Virus record (IMG/VR): IMGVR_UViG_3300005758_000578
Location: 32,001-96,000 of that record
Length of the DNA: 64,000 bases
Reading direction: 5' to 3' (one strand)
Source of the DNA: a virus
The number at the start of each line of letters is the position of its first letter. Position 1 is the stretch's first letter. The notes below the pieces were generated by a model, which was not told the origin of the DNA, ran no database searches, and saw only the letters and a list, made by a program, of their open reading frames with translations. This document shows positions 20,901 through 49,785 of this stretch, piece by piece. The position numbers and the translations under genes were made by a program.

Positions 20901-23900
20901 AATGCTTCTCTTAAAGTTGGGTTATCATCTAAATAAAAACCTACAGCTTTTAAAAAGTCAAATACATTAAGTTTATTAATTGATGAAAAGTCTTCAAATA
21001 CCTTATCTATATTCAAGATAGGTGTTGATCCCTTCTTTCTAATTACATACTTAGATCGGTTAGTTAAAAATTTAGAATTAAAACTATTAACAATTTTTGT
21101 TGTATCACTAGTAGCTCTTTGAATATATGTAGAAACCTTAGTTGATGCAGATTTATCTTCCTCTTCTTCAATAGATGTAGAAAGTCTGTGTTCTATAATA
21201 GGTGTTACAGTTTTATTAAATGTTTGAGCAAATCCTAACCAACGTTTAAAATTAGCGTTATTAGTTTGAGATTGTTCAGGATCTCCTAATTTAGCAATTA
21301 ACTGAGCTGCTTCTGGAAAACTTTCTTGCAATCCAACTAACTTAGTATAGATCTCATCAAATGTATTTGAGTTAATTAAAGTTTTAGATATTGTACTCCA
21401 AGCTTTACCAAATTCAACAAGTTTATTAAAACCTAATCTATTCTTAATAGGTTCCCCATTTGCTTTTACTTGATATAAACTCTTAACCATATAAAGAGCT
21501 TGTTTAGAAGCTAACTCTTTTAATGATTTATCATTACCTGAACGGTCAAAACTATCTACTCCTGGATCTGATTTGTCTTCTTCTGCTTCAAGAACTTTTG
21601 CTTCAAAAGCTAAGTATTTAGATTTTTGTCTATGATAAGCAATAACACCTGACTTTTCTTTACCGGAAATAACATTATCTAAATCACCAAAGTTATTAAT
21701 AGCATACTCTAGTATCCGGATATTGTTTCTATCTATAGTATTTACACCATCAGGATCATTCTCAACCCTAGCAATTGTATCATTTAAAACATCTTGAAAA
21801 TACTGCTTAGTATTTTTATATAAGAAGTCTAATGCTCTTTTATCACTATAGATTGCTGAAATATTTAATCCAGTAGCATTAATAATTTCTGAGAAAGCAC
21901 CATCAACTGATTCATTAATTAATCTGCTATCAGATAAACTGATACTGGGTTCTTCTTCATTTAATGGATCTATACCTCTGTATAAGTTACCAAACTGCAT
22001 GTTCTCTACAGAGTAAGCATACTCAAATAGATTACCCAATCTTAAGTTATCATATAACTCTTTTACTAATGGTACAACAGTAGGATCTACAATATCAGTT
22101 TGACCGGTGAAGAAAGCTTTTACAATACGCCATAATTTCTGGAAGATACTTTCATTAGGCTTAACAAGAATTTTCTTACCATCAGATAATACATAACCTC
22201 TGAAGTCCTCAGCCAAGTATTCTTCTACTTGCTTATCAGTTGCATTAGCTAAATACTTAACCCCTTTTCTTACTGAATCATATAAACTTTGCTTTTGATC
22301 CTTTGTTAATAGTAACTGTGAGAATGCATGCCATGCTTCATGATATAAAGTAGTGTAATCTTTATTACCAGCTTTTGTAAATAATGTAATACCGCTAGAA
22401 CTAAATAGTCCTAATGCATCTGAGTTAGTTAAAGCAATTGCTTCATTAACCGGGATCATTGTAGAAAGCTTTACTTTCTCACCATCTACCATAACCTCTA
22501 AAGATCCATACCAGTCTTTAATCTTTTTAATCTCTTCAGGTGTAGTATTTACAGGTTTAAATCCGGCTCTCTTCAAACTATTGTTAATCTCATTAACAAG
22601 GTCCATATCAAATGTACCTTTAAAACCAGAAGGTGTAGTATTTACATTCTGATTCTTAATAATAGTTTTAGGTTTGGCTTTTACTTTAGTTTTAGTTTTT
22701 TTACCCTCTTCTTCAACTGGTACCTCTTCTTCCTTTTTCTCAGTTGGATACATTTCTTCTAATGCATCAATAGTAAATTCATACTGCAAACTGGGGTTAA
22801 AGGTTTTAATGGTACCATCATTACGCAACACGGTAAACACTACAGTATTCTGTCTTACAAAATCATTATAATCAATCTTAGTCTTTGTAAATTTGCCTGA
22901 CTTATAATTAGGTAAATCTATCTTACCATCAATATTATCTTTTGATATATTTATATAAGCGGTAGCTAACTGTTCTGCTATAAAATCTTCATCTGCTAAA
23001 TCCGGATTTTCAGAATCATATATTACATCCTTATCTGAATAGATACTTAAAATTGGTTTCTTATTAGTGTCATCGTAACTAATATTAAAAGTACCGTCAT
23101 TAACGTTATAGATATTCTCCAGTATACCAAATTTTACAGCATTTGATACTTTAGGATCCGCAATAAGTTTTGCAAGATTCTTAGCTAATTCATTAGATGT
23201 CTTAGTAGGAAATACTTGTACAAGATCTCCAAACTTATCTAATTTTAAAAATGTTTTACCAGAGTTGTCAAACTCTATATTACTAATAGTATCTGAAGTA
23301 ATGTTACTTACCTCAGTTAATTTAACCGGTGTATCAGATAATAAGTTAAAGCCAGATCTACCACCAACTATCTTTAATGGTAAAGCTAAACTCTTATTAC
23401 CTATAAAGGTTTTAATAAATTTATCTACTAACTCTACTTCTTTAGCTCTTTGATCCTCTAATTGTTTTCTTAAAACTTCTACATCTGGAATTTCCACTCC
23501 GGCTCTAGCAGCTTTAGCAATAGTTCTTTCTACTAGTTCATCTATAGGTGCAAGACTAGTCTCACCATTCTCTACAAATATGAACTCTCTTTTACCCTTA
23601 TTAGTATTAGGAGTGATGAAATCAGTTACGGGAATAATAGCACCTTCTGCTTCATCTTGACCTTCAATATTTGTAATATAACCTCTACTATTTACAAAGA
23701 TTTTCTTGTATCCATCTTTAGTAAAAGTAGCAAAAGATAACTGCGTAATTCTACTACCTCTAGATGTAATTGTATCAGTAGGAATCATATAGATACCTTT
23801 GATTTTAGTACCATTAGATGCAGTTATCTCTATTTGTTCAGCACTATCAAGATTTAGTTTACTTAGTCTATCTAGAATAGAGCGCATAAATGCATAGGTA

Positions 23901-31477: not shown

Positions 31478-34400
31478 TTAAGCAGTCTTATTCCTTCTTT
31501 TAGACATACCAGCTTGAGCAGCTGCAATATTACCACGCTCATCTACATTTACATCACCCATAATACCTTTAAGCAAAGCAGCTTGTACTGAAGGATCTGT
31601 AAAATCAAATGGTATACCAGTTGATTCTAAATAAGCCATCATATCATTACCTCTTTGTGCTGGGGTAATCTGTCTACCAGGTGTATAATAAGTTTTAAGA
31701 TAAGCAGGATCAACAAAGAAATTAGGATATAGACTATTCATTTGATCAGTCATAAATCTATTATCTAATGCAGCATTTGCATAATCTACAACTTGTCTTC
31801 TACCAGCTCTTCTAGCATTATCATATTGCTGATTAGTAGTAACTGTCTTATCATAGAAGTCATTAGCGGCTAATTGATTTCTAAAGTTAGCTTCATTAAT
31901 CAATTGCTTATTGGCTTGTTCAAACTGATTAGCTACACCAACGTTTAAGTTATTATATCTACCCAAGATATTAGCTGCATTAGCTAAACCTTTACCTTGT
32001 ACATCAGAGAATCTAGCATTAAATGATTGCGGTCCGGTAAACTGTGCTAAATTACTAGCAGCAATATTAGCCATCTCAGCATTAGCGGCCAACTCTCTAT
32101 TAGGATCATAGAATGTAGGCTTCATAGGCTCTGCGGTAAACTGTGCCATTCTAGGAAAGTATCTATTAATACTAGCTAAGTCACCAACAGCAGCTGCAGT
32201 ATTTAATACATCTTGAGGATAGAAACCAATTGGTCTTCTTTTAGCTGGTGGTGGAGGAATTAATTCTCCTGGAGGAATCTCTTCTCTTGGAGTTTCTGGT
32301 GGTGGTGGAATTTTATCAATAGTAATAGTTGGACGAGACCATGTATAATGACCAAACATTTTATCTAATCTATTGGGATCTTTTGAATTAGGATCAAAAC
32401 CAAATTCTAATACATTCTTCTTAGCTTCTTCTTCACTTAAACCAGCTTTAATAGATTGATCATAAATATCATTGTTATACCAGTTTTGGAAAATTTCATT
32501 GTCAGCTTGATTTTTAGGATTAAAATTAGGATAGAATTTTAAAAATCTTGCTTGTCTTCTAGTAAAGTCATCTTTGTTTTCACCAGCATACCAGTCTTCA
32601 GTACCAAATGTTCCACTACCTTCTCTTCCACCTTGACGACCTGGAGTCATACTCCATTCTTTACCTTCATATCTTTTAGGTACAGTAAGTTTAATACCAG
32701 CTTTTTCTAACTCAGAAAGTCTAGCAGGATTAATAGTTCTATAGTTAGGTTCAATAGTTTTAGAACCTAATTCTTTACCTGATGCATCTACAATACTTAC
32801 AGTATTACCTTTAGTAATTCTTTTACCTTTACTACCATCTGGTAATGTAACTACTTCTACATATTCTTTCTCTCCAGTTACTTGACCTGCTGTTTGGTAT
32901 TGTTCTAATTCTCCACCATATTCTTTTTGATCAAGCATGCTATTAATTTTTTCATTAAGCAAATCATCAATTGTTAATGGTGTAGTTTGTGTTTGTGGTT
33001 TAGCTACATTAACAGGTTTTGGAGTTTGAGTAATAGGTTTAGCTTTTTGTGTTACTGGAGCAGCTTGTTTAACTGGTGCTGCAGGAACTGTATCCACTTG
33101 TTGTTTAGCAAATGGTTGATTAATAGAATTTAAAAATTCTTGTCTTCCTTTATCTACTCTTTGAATATAAGAAGGAATACCACTAGATTTAATAACTAAA
33201 TCAATTGCAGCTTCTGGATTATTAAATGTATAATCCTGAAATCTTTGAGGAGACATGTTAACCGCAGATACACTATATGGTGCAGCTTGCATATTGGCTG
33301 TAGGTTTAACTTGCCATCTACCATCTTTAAATTCAATATCTTCTGCTGTATATGGTTTTGTTCTATTAACACGAACATTAGCACCAGTTTGAGCTTTAGG
33401 AATACCACCATATCTAGCCATCATCATACCTTCTTCAGGAGATGGTGGTAAGAACTGTGCAGGATCTAATCCTACTTTATCCATATAAGGAACAGCAATC
33501 TGTGGAATACCTTGTGGGAATCCTTTTTGAGATTCTTGTACAAGAGCTAACTTACCTAAGTTAGAGATATAGTTATCAGCCATCATAACAGATGTAGCTT
33601 TACGTAAAAGATCATTTTCAGAATATAAACCCTCACGTAATTCTTTATTGTTAAGATCAAACTTCTTAGAAATTTGAGCAGGAGTGTAGCCACCTTTCTT
33701 AGCAGCAAAGCCAAAAGATTCTAAGATAGCCGGATCTTTAATCTTCATAGCTTTTGTATCTGAGTAAATAAAACTATCTGGTGTAGCTTTTTCTCCAGAT
33801 AATGGAGTACCACCTTGAGAGTGACGTTTACCACCAATAGTAAAGAACTCAGGAATTGTACTATCAGTACCCTTACGTACTAAAGTTTCTCCCTTCTCTG
33901 CTTCCAATACAGAAATAGATCTAGGATCCGGTCCTAATGTCTGACCATATTGTTCTTGTGGTTCACCTTTAGTTGCACCATTAAACATGTTCATCATATA
34001 AGCCGAGTTACCATATAACTGATTAACAGCTTTAGCATCTTGAGTACCACCATATCCAGCTTGTGGTAAACTTGTAATTTTTACTTTTCTTTTCATTTCT
34101 CCACCCATCTGGGCAATTTTATTGTAACCTTCAATTATAGCTTCATCAGGTCTAAAGTCTAAACCAAAACCAGGAGTATTTACTAAATAGTCTCCTCTAT
34201 TACCAGAATAATCTTCAGGTCTTACATTATATAAGTTATCAGATAAAAGCTGATTTCTGAAATCTTGTTTAACATTTCTATCTTGAAGTTTTCTAGAAAC
34301 AGATTTAAATATATCTGTACCGGCTAATAACATTGGTCCTATATAAGGATTAGCATTATTAGAATTATTAGTGTTAGTAGCCTTTAATGATTTACCTGGT

Positions 34401-34816
34401 ATTTGATAATCCCAAGATTGATAAGCTGTTGGTTTCCAATCACTTGGCATTTCTAATGGTACACCTGTTGATAATGCTGGAGTTAAATTATTTTGTCCTT
34501 GATAAACATCAGCTGGCAAAAAATTAGCAAATGATGTACCTCTTATATTAGAGGTGTTTTCATTTATTTTATTTCCTACATTAAAAGATCCTGTAGTATT
34601 AGGATCTCCTTGATATACATCTGCATAAAATGAAGGACTAGTATTTAAATTAAATGTAGGCATTCCCACATTAAAATTACCAGTAAACTGTGGTACATTA
34701 CCATAAGGATTTTGCTGACCATAGTACTTAAGTCTTTGATCTGGTGTTAAAACCATAGATGCTTCTGTACCAACTTGAGCTTTTGGTAAGCTCTTAATTT
34801 TTACTTTCTTCTTCAT
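31478..34816 (-). CDS. Modular cargo protein with xxxGG motifs
   Basis: 1112 aa; EAEKGE...GGKRHSQGGTPL...FIYSD module, Pro-rich linker, Gln/Asn/Ala-rich C-terminal helix; AQMGG, AGYGG, ARYGG, KEYGG. Confidence 0.7.
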   Translation of the reverse strand: MKKKVKIKSLPKAQVGTEASMVLTPDQRLKYYGQQNPYGNVPQFTGNFNVGMPTFNLNTSPSFYADVYQGDPNTTGSFNVGNKINENTSNIRGTSFANFLPADVYQGQNNLTPALSTGVPLEMPSDWKPTAYQSWDYQIPGKSLKATNTNNSNNANPYIGPMLLAGTDIFKSVSRKLQDRNVKQDFRNQLLSDNLYNVRPEDYSGNRGDYLVNTPGFGLDFRPDEAIIEGYNKIAQMGGEMKRKVKITSLPQAGYGGTQDAKAVNQLYGNSAYMMNMFNGATKGEPQEQYGQTLGPDPRSISVLEAEKGETLVRKGTDSTIPEFFTIGGKRHSQGGTPLSGEKATPDSFIYSDTKAMKIKDPAILESFGFAAKKGGYTPAQISKKFDLNNKELREGLYSENDLLRKATSVMMADNYISNLGKLALVQESQKGFPQGIPQIAVPYMDKVGLDPAQFLPPSPEEGMMMARYGGIPKAQTGANVRVNRTKPYTAEDIEFKDGRWQVKPTANMQAAPYSVSAVNMSPQRFQDYTFNNPEAAIDLVIKSSGIPSYIQRVDKGRQEFLNSINQPFAKQQVDTVPAAPVKQAAPVTQKAKPITQTPKPVNVAKPQTQTTPLTIDDLLNEKINSMLDQKEYGGELEQYQTAGQVTGEKEYVEVVTLPDGSKGKRITKGNTVSIVDASGKELGSKTIEPNYRTINPARLSELEKAGIKLTVPKRYEGKEWSMTPGRQGGREGSGTFGTEDWYAGENKDDFTRRQARFLKFYPNFNPKNQADNEIFQNWYNNDIYDQSIKAGLSEEEAKKNVLEFGFDPNSKDPNRLDKMFGHYTWSRPTITIDKIPPPPETPREEIPPGELIPPPPAKRRPIGFYPQDVLNTAAAVGDLASINRYFPRMAQFTAEPMKPTFYDPNRELAANAEMANIAASNLAQFTGPQSFNARFSDVQGKGLANAANILGRYNNLNVGVANQFEQANKQLINEANFRNQLAANDFYDKTVTTNQQYDNARRAGRRQVVDYANAALDNRFMTDQMNSLYPNFFVDPAYLKTYYTPGRQITPAQRGNDMMAYLESTGIPFDFTDPSVQAALLKGIMGDVNVDERGNIAAAQAGMSKRRNKTA

Positions 34817-34820
34817 TGCA

Positions 34821-37079
34821 TTAATCTAAATACTCAATACCATACCCCTGATCAATTAATGCTTGAATTTCATCGGGATGTAATTCTAATTCAGCACCTT
34901 CAGTCATACCACCAAATTGTTTTTTCCATTTAGCAGCGTTTCTAGCAAAGTTAGCTCTTTTTACTTGTGTTGCACTATAGTCCTCTTTATTTGCAAGTAC
35001 GTGTCTAGCAAACTCTTGCACACCCATGCCGGCTCTATTAGCTGACTCTGTAAACTTACCTTTATTAGCAGGATTGATATGAATACCACCATTCTTCATT
35101 TGATCAGTTTGTGCTTCTTGAATAGCCTGCATAATCTTTTGAATAGCTTCTTGCTGTTGTATAGGAGGTAAAGATTGTAATTGTGCCATAAGTTGTTGAG
35201 GATCAGTTTGAGTCATTTGTGCATACATTTGAATAGCTTGCATAATTTCATCCTGTTGACCACCTTGTTGATACGTATTACCACCTTTCATCATCTGGTA
35301 CATGGCATCCATATCCATTTCACCACCATACATATCAGTGTCACCACCATACATCTTTCTACTATTTCTATAAATCTGACGTAATTCTTTAGCATCAGGA
35401 TCATTACCAGTACCAAGTCTAGGATCATTAGAGTTTCTATAAATATCTAATCCCTCTCTTTCTTGTTTGTTTCTGATTTCATTACCAATCATAAATCCTA
35501 CAGTGCCTAATCCAGCAACTGCAGTAGCTATTGCATCATTACGCTTCTTTTTCTTAGCGGCTTTAGCGGCAGCTTCTGCAGCGGCTTTTTGTTCTTCAGT
35601 TAATGGAGCTCCACCATCCTGGAATGATTTCTTATATGGTTCTTTAAATACAGGATTACCCAAAGGTTTACCAGTTCTTGGATCTACACTTTCTGTAAAA
35701 GTCTTCCCAGTTGGCATTTTTGGATTAGCTGTATTAAATATCATACGCCCGGTTTGATCTGTATAAGTAGGAGGATTAGTATTTATAAAGTATTCATATA
35801 ACTGATCACGTGATGGCATATCACGTTTCTGTACTCCAGCTTGGTTTAACTGCTGCACTTGTTGATTATAATACTGTTCAAATCTAGGATCTTCTACTGG
35901 CTGACCACCATCTTGCATAAAAGGATAAGTCATACCACCGTATGCCATATTAGATAAGATCTTAGCTTGTACATAATCTGGCAATGCTTGGAATCCAGCA
36001 TTAGTTGGTTCACCACCATTAGCCCAAGTACCAAAACGCTTGTGCCAGTATAAAGGAGAGAATGGATCTTTAGCTTTAGCTGAATTCTTACCACCCATTC
36101 TATTCCAGAAATTATCCTTACGCTTCTCAGAATGATGTTGGCTAAAATCTTTCATACCGGTATAGCCACCATGTACAATTTTATACTTATCACCTTTCTT
36201 AGCTAGTACCATCCACTTCTTACCAGCTCTATCAGATTTTCTCTTAACTCCTACTTTAGTAAAACCTCTACTCTTATAACGCTGAGGAATACCACCCATC
36301 TTCATCTCTTCCATTTCACCCATGCTCATATCAATATCTTCCTCTTCTTCCTCTTCCTCACCTTCATTATATTGCATATAATCAGCAACAGTATTTAAAT
36401 AATCATCTGCTAATGTAATCTTACTAGCTACCCAGGGATCAATCTCTGTATTACCGTTGATGAAGTTTTGTAATCTAGATAGTTTATCATGCATTGCCAT
36501 AATCTGACCAGCTGCCATTTCACCACCTTCATCATACTGAGTATCACGCATCATAATACCGGCACCACCCATTTGCATAGCTGGCATACCCATAACATTC
36601 ATAGCTAATTTTGCCATCTGCATTTTATCTCCGCTATCTCCCTCAGCATTATTCATAGCAGTACTAGCAGCCATTGCACCATTAAGTACAAAATCACCAA
36701 TAGCATTCATAGGATTATTAGCTCTATCCTCATTCATCTTTTGATAATAAGAAACCATATTACCATTATAGTTAGGATATTGGAAAATCTCTTGGTCTTG
36801 TAATCCACCACCAGTTTGAGCTTTTCTATATCCACCACCACGACTCTTATAAGTTTTAACTAACCAGGCAGAACCATATGCACTAGGCCATCTATCAAAT
36901 TTAGATTTAGCTTCAGCTTTAACACGAGAATATAATTCAGGATTAGTGGGTACATTACCACCTTTCTTCATCTGTCTAGCTTCAGGATAGGCTTGAAAGA
37001 ATGCTTCTTCTGTAGGAAACATAGAATAGAATTCCTTCTCAGATTTAACACCAGCTATCTTTAAAAATTTATCTTTCAT
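34821..37079 (-). CDS. Polyprotein-like internal virion protein with 15 xxxGG motifs
   Basis: 752 aa of short basic, acidic and Met/Gln-rich modules delimited by MKKGG-like motifs. Confidence 0.7.
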   Translation of the reverse strand: MKDKFLKIAGVKSEKEFYSMFPTEEAFFQAYPEARQMKKGGNVPTNPELYSRVKAEAKSKFDRWPSAYGSAWLVKTYKSRGGGYRKAQTGGGLQDQEIFQYPNYNGNMVSYYQKMNEDRANNPMNAIGDFVLNGAMAASTAMNNAEGDSGDKMQMAKLAMNVMGMPAMQMGGAGIMMRDTQYDEGGEMAAGQIMAMHDKLSRLQNFINGNTEIDPWVASKITLADDYLNTVADYMQYNEGEEEEEEEDIDMSMGEMEEMKMGGIPQRYKSRGFTKVGVKRKSDRAGKKWMVLAKKGDKYKIVHGGYTGMKDFSQHHSEKRKDNFWNRMGGKNSAKAKDPFSPLYWHKRFGTWANGGEPTNAGFQALPDYVQAKILSNMAYGGMTYPFMQDGGQPVEDPRFEQYYNQQVQQLNQAGVQKRDMPSRDQLYEYFINTNPPTYTDQTGRMIFNTANPKMPTGKTFTESVDPRTGKPLGNPVFKEPYKKSFQDGGAPLTEEQKAAAEAAAKAAKKKKRNDAIATAVAGLGTVGFMIGNEIRNKQEREGLDIYRNSNDPRLGTGNDPDAKELRQIYRNSRKMYGGDTDMYGGEMDMDAMYQMMKGGNTYQQGGQQDEIMQAIQMYAQMTQTDPQQLMAQLQSLPPIQQQEAIQKIMQAIQEAQTDQMKNGGIHINPANKGKFTESANRAGMGVQEFARHVLANKEDYSATQVKRANFARNAAKWKKQFGGMTEGAELELHPDEIQALIDQGYGIEYLD

Positions 37080-37083
37080 TTTG

Positions 37084-39231
37084 TTATTTGTATTTTTTTA
37101 ACCAGTCTATTTGACCACCTTGTTTCTTTTGTTTAACATATATTGGTTTACCTGTTGCATCTTTTTTATAATAGAATCTATCATAAAACTCATATGGTTT
37201 TCTATTACTACCATATACAACTGCATCCATATATGGTAAGTTAAAATCATACTTATCATAAATAGATACATATCTTCCTCTTTCATCCTCACCTTGTGAT
37301 AATATAAATTTCTGTAAAGGATCTGTCTGAGTAAATGGTATTTCATTATCAGTAGTCATCATATCTTGATTAATGATATATGGACTTAATGCATCCATTT
37401 GAATAGTTTGTCCAGGTTTACCTTGAGATTTTTGTATATATGCATCAATAAGTTTTTGAGGATCATATACATTATTTAAAGCATAGTACTGGGCATTAGG
37501 ATCATTAGCTTTACTTGGTTTATATTTAGATGGACTAATATATTTTGGTTTAGTTGGTAATCCTAAAGCTAATCTCCAAGCTTCTTCACTAACATGATAA
37601 TCTCCTTGCCAATCTCTTAATGGTACATCTTTACCACTATTAACTACAGCACCAATAACATCAGGATAATCAATAGGACGATATCTATCAAATATTTGTT
37701 GTTTAGAAACATCACCAACTTTTTCTGCAACTTTAGTTGTGCCCTTATCAACTAATGCTTTTGCAACATGACCTCTTACTTCAGGAGTTAATGCCAACTT
37801 TAATAGATTAGTAAAAGATCCACCACTTTGATATTGTTCTAACCACCCTCCATACTTTGCAACATTAAGTTTAGGTTGTTCTATTTTAGAAACATTATTT
37901 AATAACCATAGAAGATCATCCTCATTATAAAGAGATTTTAAATCTTCATAATCTTGATGTATAATTGCATTATCATTATTAAAAATTTCAAACTTATTTA
38001 GATCTTTATATTTAATTTTATCATTAAATACATCAACTCCAAAATTTTGATTTAAAAGTTTTCTAGTTGAATTTAGTCTAGCTCTAACTTCAGTAGGATC
38101 AGAATAGTAATTAATAGCTCCTTCTTCAGGAGTATTACCATGATCTTGCCAAAAACCAATGCTCTCTACATTTGGATTTTTTCTTATTCTCTTACTGATC
38201 TCAGCTGTATCTTGTTCTGGAATAAGTCTATCCCAAGAAACATTAAGTATTGGTCTATCAACTGAATGAGATATTTCATGAGGAAAAACCTCGTTTTTAA
38301 AAAAATTTGGAGACGATGATGGATTAACTGTTATACTACCAGTTATATTTGAAGAATATCCTCCAATTCCTCTATTTATTTCCCCATTTGTTAATCTATT
38401 TAACTCAGTAGGAATAGTTAATAAATTATATGCTCTACCAACTTCAATTTGAGAATCTTCATCTTTACCTTGAAGCATATCTCTATATCTAGGAGATGAC
38501 ATATATTTTTTAGTCCAGTTATAAGCAGCTTCAAAATCGGAATTAGAAAAATTTCTATCTGCGGGTACTTCACTAAAATCTATCTTTTTACTAAATTCAT
38601 GGTCTCGTAAAGCATCTTCCATAGTATAATTACGTTCTCTCGTATTAGGTATAACAAAAGAATTAAAAAATCTATTTAAAGCACTTTTAGGTTTAATATG
38701 AACTTCAGATATTTTATCAGGATTTAAGAAAGTAGTTGTCTCAATCCCACCGTCTTGATACTGATCTAACCAAGTCTCACCACCATCTTCTCTACGCTTA
38801 TGATTATAGTCTATACGCTTACCAGATGTTTTCTCTCTTTTAAATTTAGCTTTCTCTGCAGATGACATCTCTGATGTAGTTTTAGGAGTTGTTTCATTTA
38901 CCCGCTTCTTAGGTCTGCATGCAGGATAAGGTCTAGAACCTTTTTCATCACCTGATCTACCACATGGTTTACCGGTCTTAACATCAGTCCACTCTTCAGC
39001 AAACCATTGTCTTAAACCACCTTTACCCATCTGTGGAATTTCAGTTACATAATTACCAGGAAAATTGTAATCCTTACCAGGCATCATCATTTGACTGTTA
39101 CCTAAATCATCTACACCTAATACTGGGTAATTTACCCCCTTCATTGTTATGTTAGAAGAGGGTATGATTGTAACTTCACCGGGATATGCCCACTGACCTA
39201 AAGGAGATACTATAGGTTTTTTCTTAGCCAT
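37084..39231 (-). CDS. Polyprotein-like protein with xxxGG motifs and a zincin module
   Basis: 715 aa; MGKGG, REDGG, YQDGG, AKYGG, YQSGG, KKQGG; HEISH (38266-38280) with YYSDPTEVRARL. Confidence 0.7.
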   Translation of the reverse strand: MAKKKPIVSPLGQWAYPGEVTIIPSSNITMKGVNYPVLGVDDLGNSQMMMPGKDYNFPGNYVTEIPQMGKGGLRQWFAEEWTDVKTGKPCGRSGDEKGSRPYPACRPKKRVNETTPKTTSEMSSAEKAKFKREKTSGKRIDYNHKRREDGGETWLDQYQDGGIETTTFLNPDKISEVHIKPKSALNRFFNSFVIPNTRERNYTMEDALRDHEFSKKIDFSEVPADRNFSNSDFEAAYNWTKKYMSSPRYRDMLQGKDEDSQIEVGRAYNLLTIPTELNRLTNGEINRGIGGYSSNITGSITVNPSSSPNFFKNEVFPHEISHSVDRPILNVSWDRLIPEQDTAEISKRIRKNPNVESIGFWQDHGNTPEEGAINYYSDPTEVRARLNSTRKLLNQNFGVDVFNDKIKYKDLNKFEIFNNDNAIIHQDYEDLKSLYNEDDLLWLLNNVSKIEQPKLNVAKYGGWLEQYQSGGSFTNLLKLALTPEVRGHVAKALVDKGTTKVAEKVGDVSKQQIFDRYRPIDYPDVIGAVVNSGKDVPLRDWQGDYHVSEEAWRLALGLPTKPKYISPSKYKPSKANDPNAQYYALNNVYDPQKLIDAYIQKSQGKPGQTIQMDALSPYIINQDMMTTDNEIPFTQTDPLQKFILSQGEDERGRYVSIYDKYDFNLPYMDAVVYGSNRKPYEFYDRFYYKKDATGKPIYVKQKKQGGQIDWLKKYK

Positions 39232-42200
39232 TACCTAAATGATGCAAGTAGTTTATTATTAGAGAGCTTCAATAAGAACTTAGATGATCCAGAAACAATT
39301 TTCTTTAACAGAACCTTATTAATGTAATGTCTAAATTTCTTTCTTTGTGTAGCTCCCTTATTATAATTTACATAAGTTGGATTAATATTCCTAATGTAAC
39401 CGTTGGATTCAGTGGCCCACATAGGTGTAAATGTACCAGTAAATTCACCACGGTCATTAGTAATATCCCAGAATTGATTGAATCTATATTTCTGTTCTTC
39501 TTTAGAGAATAAGATATCAATGTTATTAGCATTTACTAATGGATAACTATTAATCAAATATGGATCATTCTTAGGAGATAGATTTAATCTTAGATCACCA
39601 GAAATTTGTTCTGTGTTATAGATGATAGCCCGGTCAAAGTTCTCATCTAATAAATGATGATAGTCTAAACAGTTGGGAGAATATCTATAGCACTCTAAGA
39701 TATATTCTACTGATCTAGTTGTTGTAACAGTTTGACCTTGGTTCTGTACATACTCTACCTCAAATGGATAGTTAACACCATAATAGTTACAGAAAGAATC
39801 ACATACTAAGTTATGTTTCCAGATACCATTATCCTTTACAGTCATGTAGTAAGTCTTACTAGACATTACTAAGTTAGGATGCCAGTCATGGAATGAAATA
39901 AATGCTCTAGCTTTAGGGTCATAACTTACTGTCCAGGAAGCATTTTCAAAATATGTAGGATCTCCTAAATCAAATTGATATCCGGGGAAATCTACATGAC
40001 CAAACTTATTACTGTACAGATAAGTTACTTTACCCTTATACTGTGGCTTAAGTTGGAAGTCACGCTTACAGAAGAATACAATCTCATTGATGTTGTCATA
40101 TGTTGTTTGACAACCTATACCAATAATTGTATTGTCTATAATATTAGGATCCAAATTAGGGAAGTCTACTAATAAAGCATATGGACTATACTGTGAGAAC
40201 CACCACTTCATACCAGACTTAGATATATCTTGTAAGCCTTGACCATAGGAGAATACTTTACCCTGGTTTTGACTCATGTAAAATAATCCGGCTGGTGTAT
40301 TAATTACAGACAATCTATTCTGGCAGCTCCCATATTCAAACTCAGGATCTGAGTTTACTAAATTCTGTAATGGTTGTGCATTAAATAACTGACCATCACC
40401 AATAGATAATTTAGTACCACCGTTAAGATCTAATGTTTCTACACCCTGGAATAAGATAGGAGAGTTATTATTTAACATAATAATTGCTCCGGTCTTACCT
40501 ACAGAACGCATGCTAACTACTTGAGAATCAAAGTCTTTATAGTTATTAGCTAAGAACTGTCTCCAGTTATCTTTACTTAATTCAAACTGTTGTTGCAATG
40601 AATAGATAACCCGTTTATCATATGTTGTATAACATGATACATTAGCCGGATCATAAATTCTAGATTGCATATTACCCCATGATGCAAAGTTTGAGAAGTG
40701 CTTACTAATACTTAAAGCATAGTCATACTTCTGATAGTTTGTATCTTTAATATATGGAGTACGGAACATCTCCTCATAATCAGTGTAAGTAGTAAAGTCA
40801 TAATGTCTCTTACCTGGATCATCTCCGTAATCTCTATATGCTAAGTTAATCTCTGATTCTACATAAAAGTCCCGGATACCAGAGTTAAACAAATACATAT
40901 ATGCATATCTAACCATGAATGCTCCAGATATAGTCCTTCTATCTAAATGGTGAAAATCATTAGGTAATGCTTGATCACCACCAAATATACCACCTAATAA
41001 ATCAGCAGCATTATATTTAGTAGTATCCATCCAATATCTTGGATAAGGAAGCATGTTATATAATCTATAATCCCACTCAGTATTATCTGGCATATCCTGC
41101 ATCCACTGAGAGAAATAGAAGAATGTAGATTTCTCAGTGTAGCGGTTAACATACATGTCACCACCAAAGATTACAGCTGATGTAGACTTAGAAGATATTA
41201 CAGGAAATAAATTAATGCAACCAATAGGCACTTGTCTAATATTATCCAATTGACCATATTGATTATCATTCTTAATCTTTAATGCAGCATAGTGAGCAGA
41301 TGTAGTTGATGACTGAACAAAGTCTTCTGGTTTCTTCCAGATATCTTTTGCTTTAATTGGTTTATTATCATTGTCTACACCATATGAACTAGGTAAAGGT
41401 CTTCCATTCTCTCCTCTAGCAATTTGACCAATTGTAAATAAAGTATTATCTACAACTGTAGGATCTGCAATAGGAGAATTTAAAGATACAGTTACAGTGC
41501 TAGCACGGAACAAATTATTAATCCGGTAAGTAGTATCATAATCCTGAATAACTGGATCAATGTAAAGAGACTTAATAATCTCTCTTCTTCTGTTACCTAC
41601 AGGTGATGCAGCAAAGTTTTTATAGAAACCATGTGATACATATTGATAAGCAAACTGTCTTTTACCACCAGCTGCTTCAATACCCTCAATTAAATTTTGA
41701 GTAGATGCTAACCAGTAATAAGAGAATAAGATTGCATACTGAGCCATTGCACCTATTAATCCGGCAATTGCACCCGTAAATGGTTGAGCTGTTGTAGCAG
41801 TTCCAGCAATAGCAGGAATAGCCGCAGTAATACCAGCAGCAATAAGAAAATCTGTAATGGGAACAGCAGCTCTTGCGGCAGCAACACCTAAAGCAACACC
41901 CGCAAGATTAGCAATGATTGCAGAAGTATCTGTAATAAACTTATCTTTAGGATGATTATCTACTGGTCTAAATCTACCTTCTACATCACCCCATACTTGA
42001 CCATATACTTTTAATTCTGTAGCTGATAGAAAAGGATTCCGGAATGTAGTTTCAGGTGAGTGAAAAGAGAAGATATCTCTTTTAACTCCATCAAACAATT
42101 GTACATCAACAGCACCAGAATTTCCAGTGTGATACTTATCATCATCCATAGTACCACCACGAGTCTGTCTTATTTTAGGTAATTTCTTCTTATCTCTACC

Positions 42201-43922
42201 TAAGAAAGAATCATGATCTAAGAAATTGTACGGATAGTTTACGTACAATCCGGTAATATTGCTATCTACAATATCATAAGATCTCATGTTGTTAATAAGA
42301 CCCTTTGCAATAATAGATCTATTAGCTTCTCTTGATCCTCTTAAGATCTCATAACCAATAATACTTCTGATAGGATTACCTGTTGAATCTTTAGGAAACT
42401 CAATATTAGAGAACTCTACACCTAAAGAAATAATGTTATTATTAACCGGATTATAGTTAGGCATAATAATATCATCAGGAAACTTATGGTGTCTAATTTC
42501 TTGGCCACATAAGGTATCCCATACATCTGGTTTATTATCTGGATATTTTTCAGTAGACTGCCAATAAGCCATCTCACCTTTAAATACAATTGTACCACCA
42601 TCATCAGTGGTTCCAGTTGCAGGTACTTTGGTAGCAGTATTGTTTACTTGCCAGTTTTGTTCTGGACCAAAGTTTACAATATGATCAGGGCCAGAGTTAT
42701 TACTAAGTTCTCCGGGTTTTGATATACGTCCTGGAATATGATAGCTTGCAGATTTTGCACCTGTGTCATAAATCCAGCGTATAAAGAAACTATATACTTC
42801 ATCTCTTAAAAATGTTGGTTTGTTTCCGCCTTTATAATAATAGTCAGCGGGATATTCTACACCTACCCAATTAGTGCTAATCTTATTAGCTAAGGGTTGG
42901 TAATTAAAATCTTCATAAGTGGTAGGAGCAATACGGATAAGGTATTCATTTACATTATACATACCCTGTGATTTCTCATAAGCCGGGGTACGTAAAGGTA
43001 TTTGCTCCAAAGGAACTGTAGGTAATGTAGGATCTACAGCATCTAATGATATAGTACTAGTCTGAGTAGAATAGTAACCAATTCTTCTAGCTACAGCTTG
43101 TTGATTAACAAAACCAATAACTACTAACTCAAACTCATCATACTCTGTATCTAAACCATTAATAAAAATATCTAATGACCCGTTTACATTATCATGTGTC
43201 CATAAAGCCTGTACGTTAGAAATAGCTAAGTAGTCAGATACTTTAACACCATTAACTGAGTAAGCAATTGTAGCTTGGTATGATCCATTAAGTAAGGTAC
43301 CTAAACCATTACCTTTCTTTACCTGAATACAAGGAGTCTTAGCATATGCTGCTAATCTTAATTTATCACAATCAATTACTCCAGTTGATACTTCATCTTT
43401 ACAAGGTCCTGGAAGAACATCTGTTGTAAGATAAGGAACACCATCCCAATTACCTACAGGATAAGGCCATGATTCTTCCTTACCAATATTCATAGTCCGG
43501 GATACATTGTATCCATGATCCCAGTATAAAGACCAAGTACAATCAGAGTTATACTTAGATACACCAATTACTGGATATTCTTTAAAGAACTTAAAGCATT
43601 GGTTTAAAGGATCATTGTGAATAGTATTATATGCACATGTTTCTTCATGAAATAATCCTACTTCAGAAGCAAAATTATTAGAGGAATAAACAGCCCAATA
43701 ACCGTTATTAATATATACAGTACCAATGATTGTATAAGGAGCTCTTGCACAAAGTACATTACTAGGCTCATTACCTAATACACCAACATCTCCAGAAGGA
43801 GAGTTGTTTACTGCATTTCTAGCATGTGTCCAATAACCTTCACCTATATAAGTATCACTTACGTCTTTAAGTAAGCCTTTGTTATATAGCTCGGTGTGTA
43901 TTAAACTGGTTTTACCGTCCAT
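39231..43922 (-). CDS. Tail muzzle/stabilisation protein (crAss-like, P22 gp10-related)
   Basis: About 1563 aa, beta-rich; WTHARNA, FLRDEVYSFFIRW, FGGDMYVNRY, WTVSYDP...ISFHDW; follows ring genes. Start 43922 overlaps the upstream stop. Confidence 0.8.
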   Translation of the reverse strand: MDGKTSLIHTELYNKGLLKDVSDTYIGEGYWTHARNAVNNSPSGDVGVLGNEPSNVLCARAPYTIIGTVYINNGYWAVYSSNNFASEVGLFHEETCAYNTIHNDPLNQCFKFFKEYPVIGVSKYNSDCTWSLYWDHGYNVSRTMNIGKEESWPYPVGNWDGVPYLTTDVLPGPCKDEVSTGVIDCDKLRLAAYAKTPCIQVKKGNGLGTLLNGSYQATIAYSVNGVKVSDYLAISNVQALWTHDNVNGSLDIFINGLDTEYDEFELVVIGFVNQQAVARRIGYYSTQTSTISLDAVDPTLPTVPLEQIPLRTPAYEKSQGMYNVNEYLIRIAPTTYEDFNYQPLANKISTNWVGVEYPADYYYKGGNKPTFLRDEVYSFFIRWIYDTGAKSASYHIPGRISKPGELSNNSGPDHIVNFGPEQNWQVNNTATKVPATGTTDDGGTIVFKGEMAYWQSTEKYPDNKPDVWDTLCGQEIRHHKFPDDIIMPNYNPVNNNIISLGVEFSNIEFPKDSTGNPIRSIIGYEILRGSREANRSIIAKGLINNMRSYDIVDSNITGLYVNYPYNFLDHDSFLGRDKKKLPKIRQTRGGTMDDDKYHTGNSGAVDVQLFDGVKRDIFSFHSPETTFRNPFLSATELKVYGQVWGDVEGRFRPVDNHPKDKFITDTSAIIANLAGVALGVAAARAAVPITDFLIAAGITAAIPAIAGTATTAQPFTGAIAGLIGAMAQYAILFSYYWLASTQNLIEGIEAAGGKRQFAYQYVSHGFYKNFAASPVGNRRREIIKSLYIDPVIQDYDTTYRINNLFRASTVTVSLNSPIADPTVVDNTLFTIGQIARGENGRPLPSSYGVDNDNKPIKAKDIWKKPEDFVQSSTTSAHYAALKIKNDNQYGQLDNIRQVPIGCINLFPVISSKSTSAVIFGGDMYVNRYTEKSTFFYFSQWMQDMPDNTEWDYRLYNMLPYPRYWMDTTKYNAADLLGGIFGGDQALPNDFHHLDRRTISGAFMVRYAYMYLFNSGIRDFYVESEINLAYRDYGDDPGKRHYDFTTYTDYEEMFRTPYIKDTNYQKYDYALSISKHFSNFASWGNMQSRIYDPANVSCYTTYDKRVIYSLQQQFELSKDNWRQFLANNYKDFDSQVVSMRSVGKTGAIIMLNNNSPILFQGVETLDLNGGTKLSIGDGQLFNAQPLQNLVNSDPEFEYGSCQNRLSVINTPAGLFYMSQNQGKVFSYGQGLQDISKSGMKWWFSQYSPYALLVDFPNLDPNIIDNTIIGIGCQTTYDNINEIVFFCKRDFQLKPQYKGKVTYLYSNKFGHVDFPGYQFDLGDPTYFENASWTVSYDPKARAFISFHDWHPNLVMSSKTYYMTVKDNGIWKHNLVCDSFCNYYGVNYPFEVEYVQNQGQTVTTTRSVEYILECYRYSPNCLDYHHLLDENFDRAIIYNTEQISGDLRLNLSPKNDPYLINSYPLVNANNIDILFSKEEQKYRFNQFWDITNDRGEFTGTFTPMWATESNGYIRNINPTYVNYNKGATQRKKFRHYINKVLLKKIVSGSSKFLLKLSNNKLLASFR

Positions 43923-44788
43923 TATCTCCAACTATTAAAATTATAACTTTTAAATTGATCGTAATATTTGCCATATTGAGCCTTACGGTTCATCTGCCAC
44001 ATCTTATACATCTCAGCAAAGTCTGGAGTATTTACTAATGACAAGGCATTATTACGGGCTGCTCTTAATCTCTGTTCAATTAAATTAAGTTTCTGTACTA
44101 CATCTTCCCCATTCATATACAAGTTCTCAAGCAATCTCTGTTTAAGAGCATATTCATAATACTCATTTACATATGGGTTATCTAATACCATCAAGTTACC
44201 CTCTTCATCTTCCATAGTACCTTCATAGTTGATGTATACTTTACCGTGGTCTAGATTTAGATAAATGTAACCATTCTTAAGTTGTCCTTTATACGGTGAC
44301 TTCCAGGTAAGATTAGGACAGTCACAAGAAATAGTTTTAGAGTTATTATCTAAAGAGATAACTGTACTAATCTCATATGTCCGGGTCTCATACTGTGTAG
44401 TCTGAATTACTTGTAATAAATCACCACACTGAGTCAAACAAGTATTAGGTTGACAAGTACAGGGATCATCACAATTTGGATTAAAGGGTACAATAGTATC
44501 CTCTCTATGCGTACCAGAAATAGCGGGCTGTGTAATGCTATATTCACCACACAACATTGCATAGTTTAATACATAGAAATCATCAGGTAGTCTTACTTTA
44601 CTATTGACAATATCAAGTACTGCTTCCTTAGTTTTATTAATCCTAAGACCTAAATCATAATTAACTCTCTGAACAACTTTAATAAGTTGCTGAGGCTCTA
44701 TCATATTCTCTAAAGCATACATAGAGAAATCAACACTTACATCTTCAAGTAATTGATTAAATGTACGATATTTTAATTCTGTAAGCAT
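43922..44788 (-). CDS. Tail ring/tubular protein
   Basis: 288 aa; VRLPDDFY, GKVYINYEG...DEEGNLMVLD; directly before the muzzle gene. Confidence 0.7.
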   Translation of the reverse strand: MLTELKYRTFNQLLEDVSVDFSMYALENMIEPQQLIKVVQRVNYDLGLRINKTKEAVLDIVNSKVRLPDDFYVLNYAMLCGEYSITQPAISGTHREDTIVPFNPNCDDPCTCQPNTCLTQCGDLLQVIQTTQYETRTYEISTVISLDNNSKTISCDCPNLTWKSPYKGQLKNGYIYLNLDHGKVYINYEGTMEDEEGNLMVLDNPYVNEYYEYALKQRLLENLYMNGEDVVQKLNLIEQRLRAARNNALSLVNTPDFAEMYKMWQMNRKAQYGKYYDQFKSYNFNSWR

Positions 44789-45456
44789 TATCTATTTGGA
44801 TTAATATTGTCATCACTAAGATCTGTAGGAATAGATAATCTAGATCCTAAATCTTTAATTGCCATTGCTTCAATTTCAGCTAATAAGAATTCAGGTACAT
44901 TAATACCCAAATCCTGTTTCTTAGTACATGCATTAGCATCATTAGTTGCATCTTCTGTAAAAATTGCCTCTACCTTAATAGCATCCCAATCAAGATTAGG
45001 CATGTATAAATATCCATTCAAGTACCAAAAGTATTTAAACTTGTTATACTTAAAGCCGGTTGTTTTAGTCATAGAGGTATATTGACCAGGTGTGGTTGCA
45101 TATAACTCTTCAGATGCATCAATAGAGCTCACTGTGCGAATCAAAGGACCCCAGTAACCCTCTAACATAGTAGGAAGTTTTTCTTTTGTTCTACGGATAG
45201 TGCAGCCGGATTTAATACCAGCACAACATGCCTCAATTTTATCTACTTCAATTAACTCTAAACAGTCTAGAGTTCTCCAGATAGAATTAAATTTCATTAG
45301 CTTATTCTGAGAATCTTGTCTTCTCATTAAAAGCTGTGAGTATTTTACTACTACACTATAAACATATCTATCTGTCAGAAAAGCATCTTGCCTTACTGCT
45401 TTTACTTGATTCTTTACCCGTGATATTACGGTGCCAATAGTTATCATTTTTATCAA
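44788..45456 (-). CDS. Tail ring-like structural protein
   Basis: CLELIEVD...C...RTKEKLP, YFWYLNGYLY; crAss-like tail synteny. True start may be 45447. Confidence 0.65.
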   Translation of the reverse strand: MIKMITIGTVISRVKNQVKAVRQDAFLTDRYVYSVVVKYSQLLMRRQDSQNKLMKFNSIWRTLDCLELIEVDKIEACCAGIKSGCTIRRTKEKLPTMLEGYWGPLIRTVSSIDASEELYATTPGQYTSMTKTTGFKYNKFKYFWYLNGYLYMPNLDWDAIKVEAIFTEDATNDANACTKKQDLGINVPEFLLAEIEAMAIKDLGSRLSIPTDLSDDNINPNR

Positions 45457-48378: not shown

Positions 48379-49785
48379 TTATGGTACAATAGTCAATACA
48401 CCAGCATTGCTCCAAACCGCACCGCTTGGAAGACCTACACTTGATGTAGGAATATTAGTTAATACTAAACGGTTAGCGTGAAAAGCACAAGCTAATCTAG
48501 AAGTAACAGCACAACCTACAACAGAACTATAGTCATGACTTGCCACGTTTAATAAACCTCCTAAAATATATGTATGAAGTCCACAAGCAGTATTTTGACC
48601 ACCTGCAAATACACCAGACCAACATCCACTAGCTACGTTGCAACAACCACCACCAATTGCACTTACCCAACCAGTAACACAGTTTAAGAATCCAGATCCT
48701 ACAAAACCATTATTGCAACTTGCAAGGTTACGACCTCCACCACCAATAAATGTATATGGTCCAGTTGCCACGTTCAAGTAACCACCACCAATAAATGATG
48801 GGTCACCACCTGCTGTATTGCTATCACCACCCATAATTGAAGAACGGGTATTAGAAGTCATATTACATTGACCGCCTCCAATAAAATTTTGGAGTGAACA
48901 TGTTCTATTATAATATCCACCACCAATAAAACTATTACTACCACCTGAAATATTATTACCACCACCACCAATAAAACTTTGAGATCCATTTGTAACATTA
49001 TACTGACCACCACCAACAAATGAAAGAGATGCTCCAGGATTTACAGTATTATTATATCCACCAACAATTGTAGAAAATCCAGAATGTACATAATTAGTAC
49101 TACCTCCTAAAATAGCAGAACATGCTTCATTCATATAATTGTTTGTACCATTACCAATAAATGAATATCTAGGTTGATTTCCTGTACAAACAACAAGGTT
49201 ATTATTACCTCCAACAACAGCATTTCCAAAAGTGTTAATTTGTATAGTATTAGCACTCCCACCACCAATAAAACCATAAGGACTACAAATTCTATTACCA
49301 CCACCACTAATAATTACAGAATAAGTACTTGCAGCTATACTATTATTACAACCACCAATAATACTATTAATATCGTCAACGCCACTTGTTCCAGATATAG
49401 TATTATTACTACCACCACCAATATTAGAATATTTTACAGATACATTATTAGTAAATCCACCTGAAATATTAGAATATGGTCCAGATACTGCATTTACAGT
49501 ACCTCCACTAATAGTAGAATAGCAACCAGTAGCATTATTTAATTCTCCAGATAATACTCCAGAATAAGCACCACTAGCACAGTTACTGGCAGCATCTCTT
49601 AAAGTAGATTTTAATCCGGTACCTTCTACAATAATAGATGATCCACTAGGAGGTGTAGGTCCTGGGGTAAGTGTATTAACATAATCCACTAAGGTATTAA
49701 GGTGACCCATTCTAGCCACATCAAAATCCTGACTATTTCTAATAAAGGGATCAGGTGATTTCGGTATAAATCTTTCAATTGTCAT
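48379..49785 (-). CDS. Fibre protein with ~15-aa SFIGGGxxN repeats
   Basis: More than 20 tandem repeats, many with Cys; C-terminal LTNIPTSSVGLPSGAVWSNAGVLTIV. Confidence 0.8.
   Translation of the reverse strand: MTIERFIPKSPDPFIRNSQDFDVARMGHLNTLVDYVNTLTPGPTPPSGSSIIVEGTGLKSTLRDAASNCASGAYSGVLSGELNNATGCYSTISGGTVNAVSGPYSNISGGFTNNVSVKYSNIGGGSNNTISGTSGVDDINSIIGGCNNSIAASTYSVIISGGGNRICSPYGFIGGGSANTIQINTFGNAVVGGNNNLVVCTGNQPRYSFIGNGTNNYMNEACSAILGGSTNYVHSGFSTIVGGYNNTVNPGASLSFVGGGQYNVTNGSQSFIGGGGNNISGGSNSFIGGGYYNRTCSLQNFIGGGQCNMTSNTRSSIMGGDSNTAGGDPSFIGGGYLNVATGPYTFIGGGGRNLASCNNGFVGSGFLNCVTGWVSAIGGGCCNVASGCWSGVFAGGQNTACGLHTYILGGLLNVASHDYSSVVGCAVTSRLACAFHANRLVLTNIPTSSVGLPSGAVWSNAGVLTIVP

Follow-up and report, generated by a model that had tools for sequence, protein, structure and literature searches.

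What do the Gly-Gly motifs do that recur along the long open reading frames (ORFs) behind the muzzle gene of an uncultured phage, and are the proteins that carry them cut there? The question is raised by IMG/VR record IMGVR_UViG_3300005758_000578, a 112,048-bp genome (94% complete) of an uncultured virus, of which we analyzed bases 32001-96000, a stretch of 64,000 nucleotides hereafter called the window and, judged by its sequence, part of a crAss-like phage. Three consecutive minus-strand genes, A (715 amino acids, aa), B (752 aa) and C (1112 aa), contain the motifs. A preliminary description had counted more than 20 motifs of the form xxxGG in them, and had interpreted these as maturation-protease sites that release many small effectors or as a capsid-targeting tag. 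We find that the motif is real in A and B, where it is selected punctuation between independently exchangeable modules of putative virion cargo proteins; each occurrence is referred to below as a joint. No description of the motif was found by full-text searches of the literature.

All motifs listed in the preliminary description are present (15 in B, six in A and at least four in C). Runs of Gly-Gly number 18 in B, 7 in A and 8 in C. The three runs of B beyond the listed 15 are KSRGGG at 81, at the end of the N-terminal half of DUF5872, and IVHGG 304 and NRMGG 329, both within DUF5754; six runs of A are joint-like and the seventh, RGIGG at 290, is module-internal. Measured against the expectation from squared glycine frequency, GG dipeptides number 20 vs 7.7 in B, 7 vs 3.4 in A and 8 vs 7.0 in C. 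Enrichment was assessed by using a family-derived joint pattern, [MYFWK][QKAM]xGG, with 2000 composition-preserving shuffles as the null. The pattern was matched 12 times in B (shuffle mean 0.6, maximum 5) and three times in A (shuffle mean 0.14, P=0.0005), and the strict pattern had no match in C. Elsewhere in the proteome three matches were found in 33,118 aa, or 0.09 per 1000 aa, vs 16 per 1000 in B. Of the four residues preceding GG, at least three were M, Q, K, Y or F at 14 of the 33 sites of A, B and C combined; elsewhere in the genome this held for 2 of 134. The expected enrichment over the rest of the proteome was thus borne out for A and B and failed for C, where GG is at chance.

A logo was built from 647 unique joint contexts of 169 family members, with residues numbered as for a protease site that has Gly-Gly at P2-P1. 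Information was highest at P5 (M/Y/K, 0.88 bit), followed by P4 (Q/K/A, 0.66), P1' (0.55) and P3 (0.54), with further P' positions at ≤0.3; M, Y and K made up 25%, 23% and 15% of P5 residues. The (M/L/I)xGG rule to which the motif had been likened does not describe these contexts, in which the bulky residue stands at P5 and P4 is Q/K/A. We also considered, and dropped, the idea that internal Met before GG represents fossil start codons, Met being merely one of several bulky P5 residues. The joints of B end at residues 41, 92, 172, 186, 263, 356, 382, 392, 490, 579, 586, 600, 607, 665 and 724, and across 75 relatives their glycines show no variation or ≥90% conservation, except at 40-41, 381-382, 391-392 and 489-490. 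At the DNA level, identity between joints is 0.31-0.76, close to the amino-acid identity, and synonymous codons vary (TTA/CTT/CTA, GGT/GGA); selection therefore acts on the peptide and not on the DNA.

Ten related IMG/VR loci carry A, B and C (lengths of 509-1934, 541-838 and 894-1369 aa, respectively). When B proteins were aligned, large indels started and stopped at joints: one relative (L013) has lost exactly the module with the N-terminal half of DUF5872 plus one joint, and a mini-module of the form MPxEIARARFAAAGNLDKLDxYGYAxGG occupies three different places among orthologues. To quantify this, 120 B-family proteins were compared by pairwise global alignments with flank filters, and clean indels of ≥12 aa were evaluated against 300 random placements. 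GG stood in register at both ends of 73 of the 118 clean indels (random placement 2.0 ± 1.5, maximum 7); the strictest indel definition gave 45 of 175 vs 1.1 expected. The same test with KK, QQ, MM, EE, AA, NN, DD, SS, MG, GM, QM and GE returned 0, and the control dipeptides YG and KG, which are parts of the joint, gave small numbers. In the A family four of five clean indels passed the joint-to-joint test, and among C orthologues none of three clean indels lay at GG. These pairwise alignments replaced a multiple sequence alignment of the 120 sequences (E-INS-i), whose 1213 inflated "segments" showed just 2-5x enrichment.

A multiple alignment of the A family was unreadable since the cassettes differ, and was replaced by joint splitting and clustering. 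A carries a compound joint, K-x-GG-(0-3 residues)-W-L-x-x-Y-Q-x-GG, which doubles the joint about a short hydrophobic core and in which both sides of the first GG are conserved. Splitting the ten A orthologues at this joint, followed by clustering, yielded cassettes M0-M13 in various strings (Table 1). A back-translated DNA pattern for GGWLxxYQxGG had 51 matches in 47 IMG/VR contigs, all in frame in large ORFs and in the context K-[N/Y/E]-GGWL-[D/S/N]-[K/Q/E]-YQ-[D/S/E]-GG; seven of ten sampled contigs also encode the muzzle. For B, exhaustive searching with HMMER retrieved 4,573 cluster representatives at E≤0.001, of which 1,618 were at E≤1e-10. In the best 149 representatives, internal homology-block ends lay within 4 aa of a B joint in 226 of 332 cases, vs 71.8 expected. 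The most widely shared block is DUF5754, whose position varies widely among proteins of 180-2662 aa. The module at B residues 664-724 also aligns with the cargo protein gp45 of phage crAss001 (BLASTP E=1e-4, both flanking GG aligned). In cr10_1 this module is a gene by itself (75 aa), adjacent to that of the capsid; in cr127_1 it forms the N-terminal part of a lysozyme gene, and in cr108_1 it lies within a cargo gene. That modules swap exactly at GG, a test proposed in the preliminary description, was therefore found in the B-family alignments and in the A cassette splits; its claim that GG lies at module boundaries stands for A and B on the indels, cassettes and homology blocks, and falls for C.

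The chain ends carry conserved peptides of their own. In the A family the chain end is GG-x(0-4)-W-[LIMV]-x-x-[YF]-x in 36 of 49 proteins, some of them only 30-45% identical. Neither a second GG nor another module comes after it; the peptide is therefore retained even though nothing remains there to be cleaved off or linked. A few ORFs start with M-x-WLDxY/F-x-x-GG. Among 149 diverse B-type representatives (180-1844 aa), 100 end in the same tail of about 25 residues as B, of the form ...E-h-x-x-h-x3-G-Y-x-h-E-h-h, and in 98 of these 100 a GG joint lies 16-45 aa before the chain end. The strict form of this tail motif was terminal 35 times and internal 0 times. Such tails indicate that each chain has a defined end, and the targeting tag that the preliminary description had offered as an alternative fits these peptides in both families.

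A, B and C are probably carried in the phage particle, a location suggested by gene synteny with crAss001. On the minus strand the order is ring 2, ring 1, muzzle, A, B and C, followed by ORFs of 855, 1470, 3148, 586 and 1855 aa, of which the 3148-aa ORF downstream of C is of RNA polymerase (RNAP) size. The ring, muzzle and cargo order is the same as that of crAss001 gp43-gp47, so that the genes stand where Crassvirales cargo is encoded. In crAss001 the muzzle gp44 is followed by cargo gp45 and gp46 and then by RNA-polymerase proteins, all of which were detected in virions; mass-spectrometry support for virion cargo refers to gp45 and gp46 of crAss001 only (PMC10172136). The 2018 crAss001 paper, consulted for an SDS-polyacrylamide gel assignment of gp45, gives band sizes only. 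A, B and C appear tightly coupled, because the gaps between A and B and between B and C are just 4 nt each (window 34816-34821 and 37079-37084), and ORF limits in relatives move between joints. In one relative (L004) an alternative upstream start overlaps the end of A.

We give somewhat better than even chances to a model in which the joints act as an uncut hinge or handle and, together with the terminal tags, make cassette exchange safe. A and B, and weakly C, would be packed into the particle and ejected into the host, each chain being a string of modules that would fold, or stay floppy, independently. A simple joint (bulky residue M/Y/F/K, then Q/K/A, any residue and Gly-Gly) would stay uncut in the particle; its Gly-Gly would serve as a hinge, such that each module could unfold and thread the portal and tail separately, and the residues before Gly-Gly, with the WLxxY core, would form a small handle docking on a neighbor, for example the portal, the capsid interior or the tail barrel. 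Dedicated end tags would be the A-type GG-x3-WLNKYK and the B-type 25-residue tail. Since every joint resembles the others and keeps the reading frame, a recombination event joining any pair would add, remove or swap whole modules and leave the rest undamaged, which would generate the cassette-like diversity of the relatives. In a bolder version, which we regard as doubtful, the simple joint (bulky-Q/K-x-GG), the GG-WLxxY handle and the C-terminal 25-residue tail would make up a modular cargo code that docks each chain and each of its modules to the portal, tail barrel or capsid interior, and any module placed between two joints would be packed and injected automatically. Such a code may be combined with cutting of the joints by packaged zincins after assembly or ejection.

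Processing of polyproteins at Gly-Gly-X is known from the adenovirus protease (C5), pS273R of African swine fever virus (ASFV) and Ulp1-like C48 proteases, and these systems resemble the present one in having Gly-Gly at P2-P1, a bulky residue upstream and (putative) virion-packaged proteins. By analogy, a phage protease, such as a packaged zincin module, or a host protease might cut after Gly-Gly in the filled head or after ejection to release many small proteins; we consider this unlikely, and the following observations speak for it and against an uncut chain. The P side is better conserved than the P' side, as for a protease site, and P' is variable at simple joints. A joint stands at every module boundary and ORF limits float between joints across phages, which would be easiest to tolerate if the mature products were single modules; modules also exist as stand-alone genes, and the cr127_1 module starts exactly where a post-GG cut would leave it. 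HExxH motifs occur in three cargo-position proteins (A at 318; HEYAH at 199 of the 1855-aa ORF, window 12637-12651, minus strand; HEAWH at 697 of the 3148-aa ORF, window 22328-22342, minus strand) and could process the chains after packaging or ejection. Precedents are the processing of P1 DarA/DdrB and the zincin-like peptidase modules that are common in polyvalent proteins and were proposed to process the chain (PMC5512222), as well as the fused crAss RNAP polyproteins described as "likely cleaved" (bioRxiv 10.1101/2020.03.07.982082). The HEYAH and HEAWH motifs may correspond to the zincin-like domain reported beside crAss virion RNAPs in the latter study.

Several observations speak against cutting. 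The full-genome search for Ulp1/C48/C5-like or prohead proteases that the preliminary description had proposed was run, and no C48/C5 (PF02902, PF00770), C39 (PF03412) or S78/S77 (PF04586, PF03420) protease was found in the 94%-complete genome, and none of the prohead type lies between the genes for portal and capsid. Among about 40 ORFs scanned with Pfam, the one protease match was a DUF2201_N putative metallopeptidase domain, in a DUF2201_N/VWA protein that sits in the replication module. A 409-aa gene next to the major capsid protein gene, whose positional counterpart in cr10_1 is annotated as a peptidase, was rejected as a protease on the grounds of no similarity and a scaffold-like composition. 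We likewise rejected the zincin of A, which had been named as a candidate, as a universal processing enzyme: HExxH is present in six of ten A orthologues, and the four without a zincin keep all joints, which points to cargo. A double-glycine leader type is disfavored by the absence of PF03412 and by motifs that are internal and repeated instead of a single leader. In contrast to the adenovirus and ASFV systems, the bulky residue stands at P5 and not at the adenain P4, and post-GG residues are conserved in compound joints. The idea of many small effectors finds no support: only DUF5872 and DUF5754 were found by Pfam, and B is predicted to be mostly disordered. The terminal half-joints keep WLNKY without a second GG, which argues that the peptide has a role besides being cut, and the obligate C-terminal tail implies handling of the whole chain at least until packaging. 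Finally, crAss001 gp45 carries SAYGG, NAFGG-WLNTQGG, FAYGG and AKGG, and its residues 425-552, described as one compact portal-bound modelled domain (PMC10172136), include GG427-428, the WLNTQ core, GG434-435 and GG447-448, so that the model spans three joints. This last argument is limited in that it draws on the description of the model in the paper and not on coordinates, and concerns another phage family; moreover, the portal-binding domain of gp45 (PF25725, crAss_CARG1) was undetected in a six-frame whole-genome search (E≤10) and in Pfam analysis of A, B, C and the 855-aa and 1470-aa ORFs. Joints could alternatively have no role in the protein and be scars or substrates of DNA recombination, short repeats that drive illegitimate recombination between module genes. 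In-register joint-to-joint indels are what short direct repeats would give, and joints share a core of ~10-14 nt (GGTGG(A/T)TGGTT(A/G)GA); we nevertheless hold this to be very improbable, given the free synonymous variation described above, the conservation of most joint glycines in the 75 relatives, and the retention of the peptide in 47 distant contigs and at chain ends that have no recombination partner. Least credible is a compositional artefact in which Gly/Met/Gln-rich low complexity yields xxxGG by chance: B is indeed rich in these residues (G 10.1%, M 6.8%, Q 7.7%) and C has its GG at chance, but the shuffles of B and the coincidence of joints with indel and homology-block boundaries refute it for A and B.

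Among the closest described systems is cargo C1 gp45 of crAss001 (Bayfield et al. 2023, PMC10172136; PDB 7QOG, 7QOI, 7QOJ, 7QOL, 8CKB). It is alike in its position directly behind the muzzle gene, has the same joints and has one GG-bounded module in common with B, and its pieces resolved by cryo-electron microscopy (214-245 and 425-552) begin or end near joints. The window differs in having no detectable PF25725, in having three cargo-position genes vs two, and in A and C, which are not significantly similar to gp45; joints, module swapping and terminal tags are not mentioned for crAss001 in PMC10172136. Polyvalent proteins (Iyer, Burroughs, Anand, de Souza, Aravind 2017, PMC5512222) are similarly multi-module, encoded near late virion genes, thought to be delivered with DNA and variable in order, and their variable combinations of 2-15 distinct domains are found here as well, with 3-5 cassettes in A and about 16 small modules in B. 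However, that class is defined by recognisable enzymatic domains, whereas the modules here are DUF5872, DUF5754, a motif-level zincin and others without assigned function. The defining feature here is the conserved joint with terminal tags; in PMC5512222 the word "linker" occurs 0 times and joint and end tags are not described. In polymorphic toxins a short peptide (VENN in CdiA, PxxxxDPxGL in Rhs; Zhang et al. 2012, PMC3482391) also marks the point of cassette exchange. There, one junction precedes one C-terminal toxin with its immunity gene, whereas here junctions are many, no immunity gene is present and the proteins are putative virion cargo. Encapsulin cargo-loading peptides and the capsid-targeting sequence of T4 internal proteins are short terminal peptides for packaging into HK97-fold shells, the T4 tag being N-terminal and removed by gp21. 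The A-type GG-WLNKYK end and the B-type tail seem to resemble these in form, as short end peptides after a Gly-rich stretch; they share no sequence similarity with them, and in the present proteins peptides of this kind are found between modules as well.

The most abundant viruses of the human gut belong to the Crassvirales, which load and eject megadaltons of protein cargo. Joints at module boundaries together with end tags offer a concrete rule for what gets packed and for the cassette evolution of cargo genes. The crAss001 model has one gp45 chain spanning capsid and tail, whose two resolved pieces would represent distinct polypeptides if joints were cut. If joints are handles, they might serve to bring foreign proteins into phage particles in laboratory phage-host pairs, and the cargo code, if true, would constitute a natural plug-in delivery system in Crassvirales.

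Table 1. Positions in the window of the cargo-string genes, their modules and joints, and the adjoining tail genes
Feature	Window position	Strand	Composition or evidence
Tail ring protein 2 gene	44788..45456	(-)	Pfam; ring pair matches PF24228 E=7e-12, PF25702 E=1e-18
Tail ring protein 1 gene	43922..44788	(-)	Pfam; ring pair matches as above
Muzzle protein gene	39231..43931	(-)	PF25731 crAss_MUZ, E=1.3e-34; directly upstream of gene A
Gene A, A-type cargo string	37084..39231	(-)	N-terminal domain, DUF5872 C-half, joint, M7, joint, M4, terminal half-joint
A residues 1-72, beta-rich conserved N-terminal domain, ends PQMGKGG	39016..39231	(-)	AlphaFold2 pLDDT about 85-91
A residues 68-138, C-terminal half of DUF5872 (PF19197 positions 51-113)	38818..39030	(-)	Pfam E=1e-11
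A residues 150-162, compound joint GGETWLDQYQDGG	38746..38784	(-)	Kept at same place in 6/9 related-locus orthologues
A residues 163-460, module M7, zincin-like by motif only	37852..38745	(-)	HEISH at 318-322 (window 38266-38280) and downstream PTEVRAR
A residues 461-471, compound joint GGWLEQYQSGG	37819..37851	(-)	Cassette splitting
A residues 472-704, module M4, folded alpha/beta	37120..37818	(-)	AlphaFold2 pLDDT about 84-93 over 540-703
A residues 705-715, terminal half-joint GGQIDWLKKYK, then stop codon	37087..37119	(-)	All 10 orthologues have it or a close variant
A-type cassette strings			Window M0-M7-M4; L009 M9-M4; L006 M0-M3-M1; L011 M5-M10-M3-M1-M11; L010 M0-M1-M2; L013 M6-M2
Gene B, B-type cargo string, about 16 small modules	34821..37079	(-)	ORF and joint map
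B residues 44-86, N-terminal half of DUF5872 (PF19197 positions 1-43)	36822..36950	(-)	Pfam E=7e-9; flanked by MKKGG and KSRGGG
B residues 280-328, DUF5754 (PF19058)	36096..36242	(-)	Pfam E=5e-6, 26.9 bits, just below the 27.4-bit cut-off
B residues 664-724, GG-bounded module, phrog_20603-like	34908..35090	(-)	PHROG match; common to crAss001 gp45 374-428
B residues 725-752, obligately C-terminal tail ...ELELHPDEIQALIDQGYGIEYLD	34824..34907	(-)	Comparison of 149 representatives
Gene C, third cargo-position protein, weak member	31478..34816	(-)	AQMGG238, AGYGG256, ARYGG470, KEYGG634 and KAQxG variants

The A-type N-terminal domain (Table 1) precedes GGWL joints in other phages (YVTEYPMMKEGGWL), and in protein P0300 it sits inside one ORF, behind a DUF5754 module. 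In the AlphaFold2 model, A consists of folded islands (residues 1-68 with a predicted local distance difference test score, pLDDT, of ~90, and residues 540-703 with ~85-93), and the joints and the zincin-like module are below 50. M7 had no Pfam or PHROG match and is poorly modelled, so that the zincin call rests on HEISH plus PTEVRAR; the related module M1 carries HEGTH...PTEVHAR. M4 is common to L009 and most of the 49 A-family members, and a search of the protein atlas with it returned viral hypothetical clusters only. Foldseek of the AlphaFold2 model of A against PDB gave nothing below E=0.1, Pfam analysis of seven long A orthologues gave DUF5872 as the only match, and no significant similarity of A to gp45 was detected.

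DUF5872 is itself split at its own internal GG, with profile positions 1-43 in B and 51-113 in A. Both halves are also found, in the opposite order, in the T4-GC_119 protein of Synechococcus phage S-BM3 (L065:121-1134), which is encoded next to the small terminase gene; there the halves are separated by basic stretches with KKGG, KAGGG and KKKGG, such that joint-like punctuation may reach beyond Crassvirales. In a B-family relative (P0091, residues 66-377) a 312-aa insertion lies inside the N-terminal half of DUF5872, between RWP and SAY. It is intein-like at its ends (starting with Cys and ending with Asn followed by Ser), and Pfam detected no Hint or intein domain in it.

The AlphaFold2 model of B has a mean pLDDT of 44, and the chain is predicted to be mostly disordered or to form short helices. 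DUF5754 lies in the module between MKMGG (262-263) and WANGG (355-356). At residues about 505-534 (window 35476-35565, minus strand), a hydrophobic stretch AIATAVAGLGTVGFMIG follows a KKKKR run and is possibly a helix for membrane insertion, as has been predicted for residues 136-158 of crAss001 gp45; if so, it would fit a role in forming an ejection channel.

C is at best a weak member of this group, because its GG count is at chance, the strict motif is missing and no indel falls at GG; chance is the simplest reading for most GG in C. It repeats its own N-terminus internally (MKRKVKITSLPQAGYGG) and had no Pfam or PHROG matches. A first by-eye reading of C as a gp45 homologue was dropped, since BLASTP was not significant and PF25725 had no match.

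Beyond the window, Pfam identified a crassvirus major capsid protein and a P22-like portal in the same genome, and between the two genes lie a GIY-YIG endonuclease gene and the gene for the acidic, scaffold-like 409-aa protein, with nothing else. Homing endonuclease genes in the genome comprise at least three of the GIY-YIG/NUMOD type, and one LAGLIDADG-like gene is also present (L062:7036-7752, minus strand; L063:1953-2822, L064:5050-5844 and L064:2731-3573, plus strand), one GIY-YIG gene being placed between the scaffold-like gene and the portal gene. An 889-aa protein with eight DUF285 repeats (E=9e-131) is encoded at window 63271-64000 and beyond (L062:271-2940, minus strand). It hits phrog_17273 and phrog_22899, as does a 736-aa ORF at 61041-63251, and the two probably represent a receptor-binding or fibre pair. 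A 468-aa ORF (window 48379-49785, minus strand) has 18% Gly, 16 Cys, 33 GG dipeptides vs 15.8 expected and a weak antifreeze beta-roll match; its Gly richness is of the repeat type and unrelated to the joints, and the protein is probably part of a tail fibre or spike.

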